Assembly (NCBI GenBank): GCA_964496415.1
Contig: CAZBZN010000013.1
Span: 414 to 18,420 of the forward strand
Source of the DNA: Candidatus Micrarchaeota archaeon
GTDB lineage: Archaea; B1Sed10-29; JAJRYS01
Direction: 5' to 3'
DNA length: 18,007 nucleotides
The notes beneath the pieces were generated by a model, which saw only the letters and a program-made list of their open reading frames with translations, was not told the origin of the DNA and did no database searches. Position numbers and translations under genes: made by a program. Position 1 is the first letter of the stretch, and every line of letters begins with the position of its first letter. Shown here piece after piece: positions 3,510 through 16,877 of this stretch.

Positions 3510-5192
3510 ATGAAGCCAAGAATGCTTGACGTGAACTTGTCAGAAGAGAAGACTGAAGTCAGAGAGCTTGATGACTCTTATTTTAATGAGTGGGTTGGTG
3601 GAAGAGGATTAGGAGCAAAACTACTTAGTGAGGAAAAAGTAGAAGACATCGAACCACTGTCAGAGGAGAACGTGTTAATATTCTCTACTAGTCCTTTTGT
3701 AGGGTTGGCTCCTGCTTTTAACAGGATATGGGTTACTACTATCTCACCGCTTACTGGTTATTACTTGTGTTCAAGTGCTGGAGGGTTTTTTGCAGGAATG
3801 ATGAGGAAAGCAGGCTTTGACGTCATAAGAGTAAAAGGAAAAGCAGAAAGGCCTGTAGTGTTGGAAGTGAGTGATGGGAAAGCAGTTCTTGTTGAAGCTT
3901 TTGACTTATGGGAGAAGAGCACTGACTACGTGAGAGAAAAACTTAAGTCAAAAGGCTCAATAGCATGCATTGGTGAAGCTGGAGAGAAAAAAGTAAGGTT
4001 CGCAAGCATACAGTTTGATGAAAGAAGTGCTGGAAGAGGAGGAGCAGGAGCAGTAATGGGTTCAAAACTGCTTAAAGCAGTAACAGTAAATGGGTCATTG
4101 GAGTTTCCAGCAGCAGACTCTGAAAAAGCAAAAGAATTAATGAGAAAACTAACTGAAAAGCTTGTTAAAACTCAAGCTTCATGGGGAGAACAGGGAACTC
4201 TTTTGATATCAAGAATGGTTAATGAAGCAGACGGCTGGCCTACTAACAACTTCAGGCAGACTCATTTCAAAGACGCTGAACCATTGTACTATGAAGGCTT
4301 TAAAGACAAAATAGTTGAAAGAAGAGCTTGTTTTAACTGTCCAATTGCTTGCGCAAGATACGTAAGACATAAGGACGGAAGCTTGCATGAAGGTCCTGAA
4401 TACGAGACTGTCTGGGCTTTTGGTCCTCAAATAGGATTCAACGACCCAGAGTTAGTGATTCAAGCTAACAGGCTTTGTGACAAGCATGGCTTGGATACTA
4501 TAAACACTGGTAACATAATTGGGTGGGTCATGGAGTTAAGTGAAAAAGGGTTAATTGAAAGACAAGTCAAGACAAAAGAACAGGTTCTTGAGTTAATCAC
4601 TGATATTGCTTTTAGGCAAGGACAGCTTCCATGGGATCTTGGTGAAGGATTAAAACACGCTGCAAAAACAATAGGAGAAGAAGCTGAAAAAATAGCAATC
4701 CACCAACAAAACATGTGCTTGCCTGCTTATGATCCCAGAGCTTTTCCAGGAATGCTTTTAACTTATACTTTAGGACCAAGACACGGCTGTCACTTGAAGG
4801 CTTGGACTATTTCAAGAGAACTTAAAATGCCTTTACAGGAAAGGCTTTCAGGAAAAGGAAAAGCAAGACTAGTTAACGAGTTAATGGTTTTCAGGGCTTT
4901 TGTTGACAGTGCTTCTCATTGTTCTTTCCTTGACTTTGACGAAGAAGACTATTCAGCGTTGTTTGAAACAGTGCTTGGAGTGACGAAGACAATGGAAGAC
5001 TTTAAGTCAGTTGGTTCAAAGATTCTTGACTTGGAAAGAAGCATTGACGTGAGAAGAGGATTGACAAAAGAACAAGACACGCTTCCTTACAGGATTCTTA
5101 ACGAGCCAGTAATAGTCAATGGAAGAGAATTCAAAGCAGCAGAGGCATTTGAAGAAATGAAAAGAGAATTCTACAAGCTAAGAGGATGGTAA
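3510..5192 (+). CDS. aor: Aldehyde:ferredoxin oxidoreductase family (tungstopterin, 4Fe-4S)
   Basis: GGRGLGAKLL, SPLTG, AGFD, GRGGAGAVMGSKLLKAV, CFNCPIAC (Cx2Cx3C), GPEYET, CDKHGLDTI, YDPR, GCH (fourth Fe-S Cys), DTLP. GGTGGT RBS. Substrate subclass cannot be assigned. Confidence 0.92.
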   Translation: MKPRMLDVNLSEEKTEVRELDDSYFNEWVGGRGLGAKLLSEEKVEDIEPLSEENVLIFSTSPFVGLAPAFNRIWVTTISPLTGYYLCSSAGGFFAGMMRKAGFDVIRVKGKAERPVVLEVSDGKAVLVEAFDLWEKSTDYVREKLKSKGSIACIGEAGEKKVRFASIQFDERSAGRGGAGAVMGSKLLKAVTVNGSLEFPAADSEKAKELMRKLTEKLVKTQASWGEQGTLLISRMVNEADGWPTNNFRQTHFKDAEPLYYEGFKDKIVERRACFNCPIACARYVRHKDGSLHEGPEYETVWAFGPQIGFNDPELVIQANRLCDKHGLDTINTGNIIGWVMELSEKGLIERQVKTKEQVLELITDIAFRQGQLPWDLGEGLKHAAKTIGEEAEKIAIHQQNMCLPAYDPRAFPGMLLTYTLGPRHGCHLKAWTISRELKMPLQERLSGKGKARLVNELMVFRAFVDSASHCSFLDFDEEDYSALFETVLGVTKTMEDFKSVGSKILDLERSIDVRRGLTKEQDTLPYRILNEPVIVNGREFKAAEAFEEMKREFYKLRGW

Positions 5193-5256
5193 AACATTTC
5201 GTTCAGCGAAGTGAACAAAATGCATGTATTTCGTTCAGTAAAGTGAACAAAATGCA
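5193..5256. repeat. Tandem pair of 32-bp palindromic units (13-6-13), left of ATPase 1
   Basis: AACATTTCGTTCA-gcgaag-TGAACAAAATGCA (5193-5224) and TGTATTTCGTTCA-gtaaag-TGAACAAAATGCA (5225-5256). Confidence 0.95.
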
Positions 5257-5271
5257 AAGATTTTTAAATGA
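5249..5271 (+). promoter_or_regulatory. BRE/TATA-like block for ATPase 1
   Basis: AAAATGCAAAGATTTTTAAATGA. The TTTTTAAA element is about 25-30 nt before ATG 5292. The block is 20/23 identical to the one before ATPase 2. Confidence 0.6.
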
Positions 5272-5291
5272 TTTGTTTCTTTAATTAAAGC

Positions 5292-6506
5292 ATGGAAGAA
5301 GCAGTAATATCAAAAATCATAGCTACTAGTGAAAAGCTTATTGGAAAAGCAAAAGAATACAAGTACAAGAGATACTTGTATGAGATTATAAGAAAAACAA
5401 GCCAAGAGTTTTTCATAGGCTTTTACGGAATGCGTGGAATTGGAAAAACTACTTTATTACTTCAATTAGCTGAGAAAACAAAAGACAGCGTTTACTTTTC
5501 AGCTGACTCAACACACTTAAGACCTTTTGACTTATATGAGATAATCTCAGAACTTAAGAAAAAAGGCTATAAGACAATTTATGTTGATGAAATCCAATTC
5601 AAAGACCATTGGAAGCAGGATCTTAAAACAATTTATGATGAAAGTGAAGTAAGAGTAATATTCACTGGTTCATCAGCAATAGACATAAAAAAAGGAGCTG
5701 ACCTTTCAAGAAGAGTGTTATTGTATGAGTTAAGCCCACTTACTTTTTCAGAATACCTTATAATAAAAAGAGGAATAAAAGCACCGTTTATTAGTTATAA
5801 ACAGTTAATTTCAAAAGCAAGCGAGCTTGCTAGGCAAAACGCTGGACTGATGGAGTATCTGCCAGAATACTTAAAAGAAGGAGGAGTAGCATACCCAGGA
5901 ACTGGGGTTGAAACTTATTTAGCACTAAGGTCAGCAGTGGACAGGGCGATAAGCCATGACTTGGCAGTAATGAAAGACGTTGATGTTAGTTATCAAAACC
6001 TTGCTTATAAGTTCTTATACTTTACAGCTTCTTCAAAACCACTTGAAATAAGTTACTCTTCAATTGCTAATCATTTGGAGATATCAAAGAACACTGCAAA
6101 GTTACTAGTGTATTATCTTGAAAGAGCTGGCTTGGTTTACTCTTTCTTACCATGTCTTAAAGGTTCTTCATTAGTAAGGAAAGAACCTAAAGTTTTATTA
6201 CCAGTTCCTTTAAGAAGTTACTTTAATTGGGAGATTGGAAAAGAACCAGATAAAGGAGCTTTAAGAGAAGACTTCTTCGTACAACACATGAAACCTGATT
6301 GTTACTTAAAAGGGAAAAGAGGTGAGAAGACTCCTGATTATTTAGTTAAAGGAAAAGCTTTTGAAGTTGGAGGAGCATCTAAAACAAGATCACAAAACCC
6401 AGACTTTTTAGTATTAGATGGTTTTCCAGTAGGTGAAAAGAAAATACCATTATTTTTAATAGGATTAATAAACCCTAAAGAATTTGCAATACGTTCAGTT
6501 AAATGA
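5292..6506 (+). CDS. AAA+ ATPase (AAA_14-like) with HTH-like region and C-terminal DUF4143/PD-(D/E)xK-like domain
   Basis: Walker A GMRGIGKTT, Walker B IYVDEIQ, TGSS, DLSRR, HTH-like SYSSIANHLEISKNTAKLLVYYLERAGLV, GALREDFF, TPDYLV...FEVGG. Confidence 0.88.
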   Translation: MEEAVISKIIATSEKLIGKAKEYKYKRYLYEIIRKTSQEFFIGFYGMRGIGKTTLLLQLAEKTKDSVYFSADSTHLRPFDLYEIISELKKKGYKTIYVDEIQFKDHWKQDLKTIYDESEVRVIFTGSSAIDIKKGADLSRRVLLYELSPLTFSEYLIIKRGIKAPFISYKQLISKASELARQNAGLMEYLPEYLKEGGVAYPGTGVETYLALRSAVDRAISHDLAVMKDVDVSYQNLAYKFLYFTASSKPLEISYSSIANHLEISKNTAKLLVYYLERAGLVYSFLPCLKGSSLVRKEPKVLLPVPLRSYFNWEIGKEPDKGALREDFFVQHMKPDCYLKGKRGEKTPDYLVKGKAFEVGGASKTRSQNPDFLVLDGFPVGEKKIPLFLIGLINPKEFAIRSVK

Positions 6507-6548
6507 ACAAAATGCATGTATTTCGTTCAGTAAAGTGAACGGAATTCA
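6485..6548. repeat. Tandem pair of 32-bp palindromic units (13-6-13), right of ATPase 1
   Basis: TGCAATACGTTCA-gttaaa-TGAACAAAATGCA (6485-6516) and TGTATTTCGTTCA-gtaaag-TGAACGGAATTCA (6517-6548). 6504-6540 is identical over 37 bp to 5212-5248. Confidence 0.95.
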
Positions 6549-9500
6549 CTCAGGCCATTCAAATCCTTTCTTTTCTTTTGGTTTTTCTTCTTCTTTTTTC
6601 ATTTGCTGAAGTTTTTCCTCAAAAGGATACTTTGGCTTTTGCTTTTTCCTGTAAAACCTTAGTCTTTCAGGAAGCTTTTCATTAACCCTTTCAAGGATCA
6701 AAGTCATTTCCTCCTTAAACAACAAGTAACCTGAAACCAAAGCTGTTATTATTGCTATTATTACTGCGTAAAGAAGCCTATGAGAAGGCTTTACTTCAGT
6801 AAGCTCTATTTCCTCTTTTCTCAAAACGCTGACAATCATGACCTGAGCAGGAGCAAGAGAAACATTACCAACAGCTTTACTCACAGTATAAGTTATTGTT
6901 TTTGACTGAGAAGCATTAAGAGTCAAAGTCCAAGCAACCACAGGATCCTCTTCTATTATTGTAGGTTCTTCACTGAAAGAAATCATTGAAACATTCTCAG
7001 CTATTGTTTTCGGAATAACTTCAGTGACATTAACCTCTACTGTCTCGTTCAAGTTGTTCGTTACTATTATTCCAATCACTGAACTTGAGTTGTCTTTCTT
7101 AACTTCAACATACTTATGAACGCTAACCCCTTCACCTACTTCTTCTTTTATCTTTACTTTAAAACTAGTGCTCACGCTTCCTGCAGTGACTTTCACAGAA
7201 TACTCCCCTGGCTTTGGATTCTTAAAAGGAACCACCTTAATCAAAGCAGTTTCAGAACCATTAGCAGGAACAATTAACTGAGTAGTATTAGCTTCTAAGT
7301 CAAAGTGCTTGAACTCAGAAGCCTCTTCAACAGTTAATGAAAGAGTTTTTGACTCATCAAAATTATTCAACACTGTAACTAATACGTCAACGCTTTGGTT
7401 TTCAAGCTCAATGCTTGAAGCATTAACTTCTATGCTTAGTTTCTCCTCCTGTTGTTCTTGTACTTGTTTTGAAACAGTCAAAGAATTATTGAAAATACTA
7501 GTAATGTTCCACACTCCAGTGACAGTAACGTTTACTGAGTAAGTTCCTTCAGGAGGAGTAGGACAATTAAAACTAAAGTACCCGTTAGAGTTAGTCCTCC
7601 CAGAACACAAGTAAGAAGAATAAGAAACCTTAACATTATCAAAACTTGAGTTAGCAAGACTTACTTTGTAAGAAGTATTATCATAATACACATAACCATA
7701 AGCAGTAAAGTAAGCAAGATTAGTATTACTACTCCATGACGAAGCATTAAGCCTTAAACCTGAAGGAAGATAAACAGTCCTATAAGCACTTCCCTTATGT
7801 CCTCTTGAATCAGTAACATTAACAGTGAAGTTATAATAACCACTAAGGCTTGAAATGTTAAACAAGCAGTATCCTCCTGAAGAATTATAATAACCACTTA
7901 ACACTAAGGAAGAAGAATTATACAAGCCACAGGACACGTTAAACAAAGAAGAGTCGTTGCCGTCAACCTCACAGGAAAAACCAGAAACATTAACTACTTT
8001 TAACTGCTTTACGTAAGAACCATTATAATTAGTAAACAAGAACAAGTACTGAGTTAGGTTTTCGTTATCAGTAATCCTAAACAATGATGGGATGCTGAAG
8101 CTAATGCTTGCTGGAACAAAAGAAACATTACCCTGTTCTAAATGACTCGTGTTACTGGAAGTTACGTTAAAGTACACTGTGACGCTTTGAGAAGCATTAG
8201 AAGGAACGCCAACAGTTACTAGTACTGAAGCACTTGAAAGACTAGCAACATTAGTAACGTTAGTCTGGTTTACTGAAACACTCCAGCCAGAAACATTATC
8301 AATGCCAACATTTATAGTATAATTCTCTGTTATGTCATCATTGTTGAAAATATTCAACAGGAAAGAATAACTGCTTCCAAGAGTAAAGTTCTTGAAAGGA
8401 GAAGAAATATTAGTTGACAGAGAAAAGTAACCATAAGCAGAAAAGTTCCTTGGCTCAGCAGTACTATTCCACACTGCAAGATTACCATAAGAGTCATTAG
8501 CATACAAAGTCAAATTATAAAGACCGCTCTTAGTAGCATTAAACACTGCAGAGTAATTATTACCACCATCATAACTCATGGTCAAGTTAACAGCAGTACC
8601 GTCAACATTAACAATCTCAACCCACACGCTGGAAACATTAATATTGTCAGTAACGCCAGCAGTGAAAGTCACGTTATCATACTGGTTCACGATTACAGTG
8701 GTCTTTCCATTAACCAAAAAACTCCCTAAAGTAGGAGGAGTAGTATCAACCAAAGTAGTGAAGTTATAAGGCCCAGTAGTGTTGCAGTTGCCTGCCTGGT
8801 CGCAAACAGTAATGTTGTAATAGTAAGTAGTGCCGTTCTCTAAAGGAGACAACTGGAAGAAATGAGAAGACGCTAAAGAAGAATTACTCACAACAGTGCC
8901 AAGATCAGTTGTATTACCATAGTTTATGGAAGCATTAGTATCCTCGCTAGTGGAAAAACTAATGTTAGAGTAATTACTCCACACGCTTGAAGAAACATTA
9001 ACAATCAAAGGAGAAATGCTAAGAGTAGTGAAGTTATGAGGCCCAGTAGTATTACAGTTTCCAGCTTGGTCGCAGGCAGTGACGTTATAATAATAAGTAG
9101 TGTTCTCAAGCAAGCCAGTAATGGTAATGTTATGCTGGGTTAAGAAAGAAGAATTAGTGACAGTCGTGCCAAGAGAGGTTGTAGTCCCGTAGTTGATTGA
9201 CGCGTTAGTCTTGTTATCAGACAACTCATCAAAACAAGAAAAAACAATAGTAGCATTATGCTCTGAAATGTTAGAAGCGTTTACTGAAACAAAAGAAGGA
9301 GCAACATTGTCAACAGTAATTCCAGTGGTAGTGTTTGATACAGTCACAGTGTCATTAGAAGCATTCACTTTAACAGTTACTCCTTCAAGGTTAAGGGAAG
9401 AAGTATCCCAGGAGTAAGTGAACTCAGAACCAGCAGTATCATTAGTTCCTATTAAAGTCCAGTCAATCCCATTAGTAGAATACCAGAAACTAGCATTGTC

Positions 9501-10356: not shown

Positions 10357-10420
10357 AAGTGATTAGTCGCAAAAGCGACTAATTTTTGCTAATTTTGGTC
10401 GTAAAAGCGACTATTAGACT
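10357..10420. repeat. Tandem pair of palindromes, 32-bp period, upstream of ATPase 2
   Basis: ATTAGTCG-caaaag-CGACTAAT (10362-10383) and GGTCG-taaaag-CGACT (10397-10412). GTCG starts at 10366 and 10398. Confidence 0.85.
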
Positions 10421-10431
10421 TTAGAATTTAT

Positions 10432-10456
10432 ACCTTTTAACGAAAAATGCGAAGGT
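10432..10456 (+). repeat. 25-bp direct repeat, left copy (flanks ATPase 2; overlaps BRE/TATA-like block 10444-10466)
   Basis: ACCTTTTAACGAAAAATGCGAAGGT, 24/25 identical to 11686-11710, with inverted ends ACCTT...AAGGT. Confidence 0.92.
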
Positions 10457-10487
10457 ATTTAAATGAGTAAAGCTTTTTTTTTAACTT

Positions 10488-11714
10488 ATGAGTTTAAGGC
10501 AAGTGCTTGAAACCTGGAACCCATGGTGGTCTGTAGGAGAAGTACCATCATCCTTAACAGGAGAGGAAAGAAAAATAACTAAAGAAATTTTCAGCTGGCT
10601 TGGTAAGAGAAAAATAAAAGTCATACTTGGTCCAAGAAGAGCTGGGAAAACAACAGTCATGTACCAGCTTATTAGCAAAATAGTTAAAAAAGATCCGTTA
10701 AAAGCAGTGTACGTTAATTTTGAAGACCCTGAACTTCAAGACGCTGGTTTTAAAAAAGTATATGAAGAAGCAAAAAAAATAGGAGGTAAGAAAGCTTTCA
10801 TATTCTTTGATGAGATTCAAAACATTAAAGACTGGGACAAGTACTTAAGAAGCATTCATGACAGAAGAGACCCAGTTGATTTAATAATTTCTGGCTCTAC
10901 AATGGCAATGCTTGGGAAAGAAGTGCAAAAAAGAATAGCGGGAAGGACAGTAAGCTTTAAGGTTTATCCCTTTTCTTTATTAGAAGCTTCTGAGATTAGA
11001 GGAATAAACCCTTTTGACCCAAGAGAAGAAGAAGCATTCCTTGGACTAGTAAAAGAACTCTTTACTACTGGATCTTATCCTGAAATTTTCCTGGAAAAAA
11101 ACCCTAATGTTAAGAAAAAACTTTTAGTTGAGTACTATGAAGGAATTGTTTCAAGAGACGTGGCAGCAGCCCATGACCTGGACTTGCACTTAGCTGAGGA
11201 AATTTCAAGGTATCTTTTAAGAAACGCAGGGAGTTTGGTGTCTATTAACAAGCTTTCAAAACTTTTCAAAATTGCTTTTCATACAACTGAAAAATACTTG
11301 AATGCTTTAAAAGATTCAATGATAATGTTTGAAGTTAGGAGATATTCTCATTCAATAAGAGAACAACTTGCGTTTCATAGGAAAGTATATCCAATTGACC
11401 TTGGCTTAAGATGGGCTGTTAGTAAAGGACCTTCACCAGACCTTGGAAAATGCTTTGAATCATTAATTGGCATAGAATTATTTAAGCAAGGAACAGAACT
11501 TTATTACTGGTCAAATCACGGTGAATGTGATTTTGTGCTTGCTGAACAAGGAAAACCATACTCATTAGTCCAAGTCACTTTTGATAAAAGAAAAGCAAGA
11601 GAACTTGAAGGGATTAAGCTTGCTTCAAGAGAACTTAAAGTAAAAATAAGCCATGTTGTAGAATTTAAGCCAGAATCAATTATAAACCTTCTAACGAAAA
11701 ATGCGAAGGTTTAA
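10488..11714 (+). CDS. AAA+ ATPase (AAA_14-like) with HTH-like region and C-terminal DUF4143 domain
   Basis: WNPWW N-terminus, Walker A GPRRAGKTT, YVNFED, Walker B FFDEIQN, SGS, AGR, GSYPE, HTH-like SINKLSKLFKIAFHTTEKYLNAL, RKVYPIDLG, GKCFES, ECDFV...VQV. Confidence 0.9.
   Translation: MSLRQVLETWNPWWSVGEVPSSLTGEERKITKEIFSWLGKRKIKVILGPRRAGKTTVMYQLISKIVKKDPLKAVYVNFEDPELQDAGFKKVYEEAKKIGGKKAFIFFDEIQNIKDWDKYLRSIHDRRDPVDLIISGSTMAMLGKEVQKRIAGRTVSFKVYPFSLLEASEIRGINPFDPREEEAFLGLVKELFTTGSYPEIFLEKNPNVKKKLLVEYYEGIVSRDVAAAHDLDLHLAEEISRYLLRNAGSLVSINKLSKLFKIAFHTTEKYLNALKDSMIMFEVRRYSHSIREQLAFHRKVYPIDLGLRWAVSKGPSPDLGKCFESLIGIELFKQGTELYYWSNHGECDFVLAEQGKPYSLVQVTFDKRKARELEGIKLASRELKVKISHVVEFKPESIINLLTKNAKV
11686..11710 (+). 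repeat. 25-bp direct repeat, right copy (within the last codons of ATPase 2)
   Basis: ACCTTCTAACGAAAAATGCGAAGGT; the ATPase stop TAA follows at 11712-11714. Confidence 0.92.
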
Positions 11715-11730
11715 AAATGATGAGAGTCTT

Positions 11731-15994: not shown

Positions 15995-16048
15995 TACTTT
16001 TCTTGGATAATACTCCATGATTGGTTCTACTATTTTTTCATATTCAAA
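15995..16048 (+). repeat. ~50-bp direct repeat, left copy (flanks TA pair)
   Basis: TTGGATAaTACTCCATGATTGGTTCTACTATTttttCATATTCAAA; 24-bp exact core at 16011-16034. Confidence 0.92.
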
Positions 16049-16828: not shown

Positions 16829-16877
16829 TACTTTTTTGGATAGTACTCCATGATTGGTTCTACTATTCATATTCAAA
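16829..16877 (+). repeat. ~50-bp direct repeat, right copy (flanks TA pair)
   Basis: TTGGATAgTACTCCATGATTGGTTCTACTATT----CATATTCAAA; exact core at 16844-16867. Confidence 0.92.

Follow-up and report, generated by a model that had tools for sequence, protein, structure and literature searches.

The window analysed here is a stretch of 18,007 nucleotides from a Candidatus Micrarchaeota archaeon (contig CAZBZN010000013.1, positions 414 to 18,420 of the forward strand), in which the gene of a predicted ATPase, ATPase 1, lies between aor and a convergent gene for a surface-type protein and is bracketed by two closely similar arrays of palindromes. The locus raises the question of what reads these arrays, and why a single gene has one at each end. 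The original prediction offered two answers, an excisable cassette flanked by recombinase sites and binding sites for the helix-turn-helix region of the ATPase itself, and remarked, fairly in our judgement, that a simple promoter operator does not explain the downstream pair. The explanation that we favour, with moderate confidence, is that the arrays are cognate sites of the ATPase's own winged helix, which would serve autoregulation and form a second, bracketing cluster, in a horizontally mobile single-gene cassette; both the identity of the binder and the effect of binding are what we infer from sequence comparisons. The features of the locus are as follows.

5196–5253, no strand: left (upstream) array, defined by the sequence, motif statistics and a 32-bp dyad period.
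5196–5205, 5212–5221, 5228–5237 and 5244–5253: left half-sites ATTTCGTTCA, TGAACAAAAT, ATTTCGTTCA and TGAACAAAAT, with spacers GCGAAG, GCATGT and GTAAAG.
5260–5269, plus strand: TATA-like box ATTTTTAAAT, 6 nt past the left array and about 25 nt ahead of the ATG (5292).
5292–6506, plus strand: ATPase 1, 404 residues, with an AAA_14 P-loop domain, a winged helix and a C-terminal PD-(D/E)xK-like domain.
6471–6506, plus strand: atypical C-terminal extension NPKEFAIRSVK and stop codon, from alignments with relatives.
6488–6545, no strand: right (downstream) array, repeat family D1, 87% identical to the left copy.
6488–6497, 6504–6513, 6520–6529 and 6536–6545: right half-sites AATACGTTCA, TGAACAAAAT, ATTTCGTTCA and TGAACGGAAT, with spacers GTTAAA, GCATGT and GTAAAG.
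5212–5248 and 6504–6540, no strand: 37-bp identical core of the direct repeat, from the repeat comparison.

The motif GTTCA-N6-TGAAC is found exactly four times in the window (5201, 5233, 6493 and 6525), where 0.02 occurrences are expected, and four were reached in none of 200 shuffles; the predicted four sites in paired 32-bp units are thus confirmed. The rest of the 687-kb assembly of the source genome (G000; 41 contigs, 36% G+C, 91% complete) contains one further, unrelated occurrence (C2:4595). Each array spans 58 bp and consists of four alternating 10-bp half-sites (ATTTCGTTCA and TGAACAAAAT) separated by 6-bp spacers, with a distance of 32 bp from dyad to dyad. The spacers within the dyads (GCGAAG and GTAAAG on the left, GTTAAA and GTAAAG on the right) are asymmetric and all in one orientation, and 37 bp are shared between the sides, as had been read directly from the sequence.

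The left array begins 3 nt beyond the aor stop codon (5190–5192), at 5196, and the right array ends at 6545, adjoining the stop codon (6546–6548) of the convergent gene, which encodes a protein of 1037 residues. The position of the TATA-like box suggests a leaderless or short-leader ATPase 1 transcript, and the AAAGnTTTTTAAATGA context also follows the arrays of relatives L003, L004 and L033. The original prediction that the right pair supplies the last codons and TGA of the ATPase gene holds, since the TGA (6504–6506) falls inside the first right-hand unit, with the refinement that the usual stop codon is missing. Relatives end in IPLFLFGLLY followed by a stop codon; ATPase 1 ends in IPLFLIGLI-NPKEFAIRSVK, ten further codons into the right array, which its reading frame enters because the usual stop has been lost. 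As the relatives stop at the tyrosine, the normal layout is a stop codon, then 0–36 nt, then the array.

An assembly artefact was ruled out as the source of the duplication. An independent metagenome contig of 1766 nt is 99.9% identical to window positions 5188–6953, and two runs from different studies yielded contigs with the same cassette and both arrays at the same location. Logan contigs (k=31) break at the 37-mer, with depths of 9.0 for the left flank, 9.7 for the cassette and 13 for the right flank. A 551-nt contig of run X1 (depth 6.7), matching window positions 5232–5256 and 6487–6514, carries a third, closely related dyad pair with unrelated flanks; this pair represents a solo array or, alternatively, a border that belongs to a related cassette of a different genome. 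Run X3 matches the stretch only in fragments and run X4 contains little of it, and neither contributes to the results given here.

By sequence comparison, ATPase 1 is a divergent COG1373 / PADLOC PDC-S01 protein. Residues 43–156 match AAA_14 (PF13173, E 1.2e-24) in Pfam and residues 23–285 match the PADLOC PDC-S01 model PDLC04787 (E 6.9e-24). No match to DUF4143 was returned by Pfam at E up to 0.001; an hhalign comparison of 35 ATPase-1-like sequences with 16 DUF4143-bearing relatives gave a probability of 99.9 and an E of 1.3e-35 over columns 28–357. Among the 35 sequences, G49, G51 and K52 of the Walker A motif (GxGKT) are invariant, and T53 is conserved in at least 90%. According to the accessible part of one survey, PDC-S01 ranks fourth in frequency among the defence candidates of prokaryotes, shows enrichment in archaea, and belongs to a set of candidates for most of which validation is pending (PMC12988326).

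The predicted structure of ATPase 1 (predicted local distance difference test score, pLDDT, 92.9) has an AAA+ domain, a helical lid and a winged helix, the last at about residues 235–300 with the recognition helix near ISKNTAKLLVYYL. The top Foldseek matches of the model are archaeal Orc1/Cdc6 bound to DNA (PDB 2v1u and 2qby) and STAND NTPases, with low template modelling scores (TM-scores) of 0.28–0.30 to Orc1/Cdc6; a sequence search of the PDB returned nothing close. In the C-terminal domain, all 35 sequences have D349 and E358, and at least 90% of them have K364. The last 100 residues modelled alone (pLDDT 85) gave mostly restriction-endonuclease-fold matches, which are weak (Z at most 5.5) and include VRR-NUC 4qbn, Bax1, Hjc and Can2; with Foldseek, this domain model had no match at E up to 0.001.

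Comparisons across loci show that the arrays are inherited with the gene, are linked to this ATPase family and have unique sites. Related cassettes (65–82% protein identity) are homologous at the DNA level over a stretch that opens at the upstream array, with its left edge (-86 to -91), and closes at the stop codon (0 to +19). In 686 of 687 six-frame (tblastx) comparisons, nothing is shared between the flanks of 22 crown-clade cassettes; every sampled cassette lies in a different neighbourhood. Among 31 genomes of the phylum, the window motif is restricted to this locus, and the sites of three other cassettes occur, in the genomes tested, only as two plus two copies at their own gene. Close relatives of ATPase 1 share an outer ATTT..AAATGCA and TATA context and vary in the inner five bases. 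The helix motif SKPT is paired with a GTAAA half-site in two separate clades. No description of such arrays was found in the available portions of the literature on this ATPase family.

Homologues of ATPase 1 are present in 21 of 61 genomes (G000 and 60 relatives) and in none of the four same-family genomes. Further cases came from genome collections (30 loci) and metagenomes (45 loci), with a related-locus search seeded by a four-sequence alignment; the relatives are non-independent samples. At 12 of 23 testable loci, the flank repeats scored above the best of 150 non-cognate flank pairs, and of 32 non-redundant archaeal cassettes, 16 have both arrays. When 35 proteins are placed on a tree, cassettes with both arrays occupy every deep archaeal branch and upstream-only cassettes fall in crown subclades, with a minimum of six changes.

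The dyad period was sought as a half-site, its inverse and the half-site again, with any period from 20 to 44 bp allowed. It is 32 bp in 24 of 35 upstream arrays, those of bacterial relatives included (33 bp in three more), and in nine of 16 downstream arrays, compared with three of 400 control upstream regions of G000, where periods are evenly spread. Four alternating half-sites are found in 13 of 35 cassettes versus five of 403 controls, three of the five being ATPase genes (non-ATPase, 2/400). Bacterial homologues (Elusimicrobia, Desulfofervidaceae) carry an upstream AGTTC-N6/7-GAACT pair over the promoter and have no downstream copy; typical DUF4143 relatives also have private promoter dyads, with a period of 32–34 bp in 11 of 28. 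To judge from these sequences, a spacing fixed at three turns, combined with a sequence that varies freely, has the appearance of an architecture imposed by a protein. Two adjacent dyads beside the promoter of the gene, in a family-wide layout, are the arrangement of a tandem-dyad operator, and like operator clusters on both sides of a putative regulator gene are the arrangement of a looping system.

The two sides are shown by sequence comparison to evolve in concert. Left and right copies are 100% identical in L004 (61/61) and L006 (51/51) and 80–98% identical elsewhere, with almost nothing in common between lineages. Across 16 loci, mismatches between copies amount to 23 of 356 positions in the palindrome arms versus 72 of 593 elsewhere (p = 0.005), and to 2/45 versus 11/19 in L003; L081 was left out of the test as redundant, and L011 and L021 as single-unit cassettes. 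On this comparison, the right copy looks to be under constraint. At all loci, the left end of the duplicated segment coincides with that of the cassette.

Private sites are also a property of the other paralogs in the same genome. Five PDC-S01-type paralogs are encoded in G000 (0.69 Mb), three of which have flanking direct repeats, each with a different, unrelated palindrome: GTTCA..TGAAC for ATPase 1, ACCTT..AAGGT for ATPase 2, and TTGTCCG..CGGACAA, with two units per side, on contig C10. The remaining two have palindromes at the promoter only. ATPase 2 lies within the window:

10429–10466, no strand: left repeat of the second cassette, ACCTT-N15-AAGGT with the TATA-like ATTTAAAT, repeat family D18, upstream of ATPase 2.
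10488–11714, plus strand: ATPase 2, 408 residues, a typical AAA_14 and DUF4143 protein (PDC-S01), by Pfam and PADLOC (3.2e-85).
11683–11720, no strand: right repeat of the second cassette, 87% identical to 10429–10466, encoding the last nine codons (NLLTKNAKV) and stop of ATPase 2.

The same layout is repeated in relatives L115 (65% identity) and L116 (46% identity), with unrelated flanks. In the three cassettes of this lineage (46–65% protein identity), the right copy encodes the last 9–13 codons and matches its own left copy (38/43, 36/37 and 43/46). Flank repeats scoring at least 50 were found for four of 162 open reading frames (ORFs) of 300–520 residues in G000; the ATPases account for three, and the remaining one is tRNA-related. 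The latter, at G000:C5:34052–35389, is the sole non-ATPase ORF with strong flank repeats, a gene of transglutaminase-like type lying between the 3' ends of tRNAs, with modules of GC-rich hairpins. Upstream of the ATPase 2 repeat, window positions 10363–10414, in the region between ATPase 2 and a divergent deaminase gene, hold the dyads TTAGTCGCAAAAGCGACTAA and TTGGTCGTAAAAGCGACTAT, 32 bp apart and thus of the same geometry as the ATPase arrays. In another genome, three PDC-S01-type ATPase genes lie within 8 kb (G027:C20:4062–11724), among them an ATPase-1-like cassette with 100% identical arrays and the closest relative (65%) of ATPase 2.

The proposal that the ATPase reads its own arrays can be put as follows. 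A dimer of the ATPase would occupy each dyad through its winged helix, and an array would thus hold two dimers; dyads 32 bp apart are separated by three helical turns, and the dimers would therefore lie on the same face of the DNA. The upstream array, ending 6 bp short of the TATA box, would act as an autoregulatory operator and probably also stop read-through from aor. The downstream array, directly past the gene, would hold a second set of proteins, and the two sets may bridge via the oligomerising AAA+ domain, looping out the 1.29-kb gene; the downstream set may also be a roadblock against transcription from the convergent surface-protein gene. The outcome would be a toxic-looking nuclease gene under tight self-control in any genomic location. 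Because the arrays are direct repeats, ordinary recombination would allow loss or exchange of the gene, and excision by this route is possible; recombination between the arrays would also keep both copies alike. The second answer of the original prediction, sites for the helix-turn-helix region at both gene ends, thus fits sites that are private, co-inherited, fixed at 32 bp and concertedly evolving.

Several points weigh against self-read operators. The downstream array is missing in half of the archaeal cassettes and in all three bacterial ones examined and is therefore dispensable; its role is the weakest part of the model. The both-sided and upstream-only states were labelled by eye, and L037, with a diverged downstream array, was counted as upstream-only. 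The arm calling behind the mismatch comparison was automatic and crude, and alignment columns are not independent. The complete identity in L004 and L006, which includes spacers and linkers, exceeds what binding needs and, at the sequence level, suggests that the copies were duplicated recently or underwent gene conversion. On its right side the duplicated segment ends raggedly, between -40 and +4 as counted from the start codon. Finally, the correlation of helix with site is based on a handful of lineages.

The alternative that survives best, which we consider unlikely, is that the arrays are a terminal redundancy that arises when the element mobilises itself. In its circular or concatemeric form, one array would lie between gene end and promoter, the ATPase-nuclease would cut at the array, and a longer-than-unit insertion would leave arrays at both ends, as in elements with long terminal repeats, so that mobility would come first and regulation second. 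This is in part compatible with the operator explanation. It would account for a duplication that begins at the left edge of every cassette and for the placement of the right copy, 0–36 nt past the stop codon or encoding the last codons, which is where the left edge of the unit would meet the gene end in a circle. Several array pairs are 96–100% identical including linkers, each cassette is in a different neighbourhood, and ATPase 1 carries a nuclease-like domain according to its structural model. The loci L080 and L081, whose proteins are 96% identical, correspond to each other from the upstream flank through the cassette to the right array, with nothing alike beyond. A solo palindrome, GGGGGAAACTTTTTTAAATTATTTCCCCC, without a gene, lies between convergent genes at G000:C2:22283–22311; the same element brackets ATPase cassettes at a distance of about 1.25 kb in G018:C18 and G019:C13, and a lost cassette may have left the solo copy as its footprint. 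At L024, a 19-nt stretch of host sequence is duplicated outside both arrays.

Other evidence speaks against self-mobilisation. Neither a circle nor an empty site or junction was observed among the k=31 contigs, which do not resolve such forms. No two cassettes of one genome are at least 60% identical, so there is no sign of transposition bursts. Cassettes without the right array are equally scattered in unrelated contexts, and a target-site duplication is not consistent across loci, the 19 nt of L024 being the only case. Proteins of this family, which combine PD-(D/E)xK and AAA+ domains, are not known to act as transposases. Taken further, PDC-S01 / COG1373 cassettes would be autonomous mobile elements of a new kind, in which the winged-helix nuclease reads its private array, excises or copies the 1.3-kb gene via a circle and re-inserts it with terminal array duplication, one array being gene end and operator-promoter at once in the circular form. 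This extension is doubtful; if true, it would explain the spread of the fourth most common defence candidate without a known recombinase.

Some further observations concern these loci. In the comparison of L080 (1475–3300) with L081 (1353–3846), the breakpoint falls inside the last half-site of L081; by eye, an AbiEi/AbiEii-type pair follows the right array at one of the two loci and a long ankyrin-repeat-like ORF at the other. The solo palindrome on G000:C2 was considered as an orthologous empty site of L136 and rejected, as the flanks are unrelated. A candidate solo pair at G019:C8:3–48 was also set aside, since it lies at a contig start beside a convergent gene and is more likely the right array of a cassette cut by the contig end. 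Among viral contigs there were five distant matches, none informative and none with circular overlap.

That the arrays act as RNA hairpins, forming 3'-end or terminator structures for aor, the ATPase gene and the convergent gene with no protein reader, is very improbable. Two hairpins can form in each array, at -19.1 and -19.6 kcal/mol (z -4.6 and -4.5), and both arrays lie just past stop codons. However, the arrays lack a T-tract and gave no terminator-like sites, the left array keeps a constant distance from the TATA box of the cassette irrespective of the upstream content, and the bacterial pair overlaps the promoter. The constant 32-bp spacing and fully private sequences are also unlike generic terminators.

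We regard as very improbable an insertion with long target duplication, in which the palindromes would be a host feature of the intergenic region between aor and the surface-protein gene, copied when a promoter-less gene inserted. Lone defence-type genes between direct repeats of more than 30 bp, with no transposase or integrase, have been described for such insertions (Furuta et al. 2010, PMC2853133; Nobusato et al. 2000 cited therein), and the present cassette, a lone defence-type gene with no mobility gene, fits the criteria given in the accessible part of that report; L024, moreover, carries a 19-nt duplicated host segment. In the cases described there, the repeat aligns with a single-copy target in an empty genome (PMC2853133), whereas the present repeat belongs to the cassette, as its proposed operator array, and is passed on together with the gene. 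Related cassettes in unrelated flanks have homologous upstream arrays, and an upstream array is present in relatives without a downstream copy, bacteria included; the 32-bp geometry is family-wide; and, apart from the single unrelated occurrence, the GTTCA motif is absent from the rest of the host genome. The aor gene was sought in four same-family genomes and one same-order genome and was found only in the latter; these genomes yielded no orthologous empty junction for comparison.

Lastly, the other answer of the original prediction, tyrosine-recombinase sites used by host XerA or by an integrase to excise the cassette, is not supported and is very improbable: inverted arms around 6-bp asymmetric spacers do stand in direct orientation on both sides of one gene, but PF00589 has no match in the 91% complete G000 (the same search was positive in 14 of 14 control genomes), a scan of 11 window ORFs showed no tyrosine-recombinase domain, the three cassettes of a single genome have three unrelated site sequences where a recombinase would reuse one, the repeat ends are ragged and the unit number variable (L033, L035), and each array has four half-sites instead of two.

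Self-read operator arrays have parallels in known systems. The gene of lambda CI lies between the operator clusters OL and OR, and cooperative binding and looping sharpen its autoregulation; the locus described here shares the layout of a regulator gene between two like-sequence tandem dyad clusters. The lambda clusters govern divergent lytic promoters at a distance of 2.4 kb, whereas no promoter is obvious at the downstream cluster of the present locus, whose protein is an AAA+ nuclease and whose looping is a conjecture. Archaeal Orc1/Cdc6 is also an AAA+ winged-helix protein with its gene beside repeated sites, the origin recognition boxes, which it binds, as ATPase 1 is predicted to bind its own arrays. 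Given the low TM-scores, this likeness is one of build and not of membership; unlike Orc1/Cdc6, the present locus has no evident unwinding element and an extra nuclease-like domain, and there are five divergent paralogs with private sites in 0.69 Mb.

In logic, the arrays resemble the tandem operators of controller (C) proteins in restriction-modification systems. In the accessible parts of the reports on the operators of C.AhdI (OL+OR, PMC1885659) and C.Esp1396I (PMC2504287), a mobile nuclease gene has a pair of neighbouring dyads beside its promoter, to which the regulator encoded by the system binds as dimers, so that control is self-contained at any place of insertion. The C protein is a separate small helix-turn-helix protein in these descriptions, and its sites are upstream only. 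In the ATPase cassettes, by contrast, the sites would be read by a domain of the ATPase-nuclease itself, the distance between dyads is 32 bp, and the gene is followed by a second array.

Three other repeats were observed in the window. Tandem repeats of 270 bp (77–85% identical) at 8754–9209 lie in the convergent 1037-residue gene and presumably encode repeated domains. A 57-nt repeat (77%) at 388–444 and 2091–2147 contains a GTTACT-N7-AGTAAC dyad followed by a TATA-like box and may be a common operator-promoter of two unrelated genes. A 36-nt repeat (94%) at 15999–16034 and 16832–16867, 833 bp apart on the side of a minus-strand gene, looks like the starts of two paralogous genes.

The arrays provide a practical marker of cassette borders in small archaeal genomes. 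If each gene has a private, fixed-geometry array that its own winged helix reads, there is a predicted DNA target for every protein, which opens the family to direct tests. If true, this would also offer a concrete handle on the gain and loss of such genes and would explain the safety and self-regulation of a nuclease-bearing gene after transfer.

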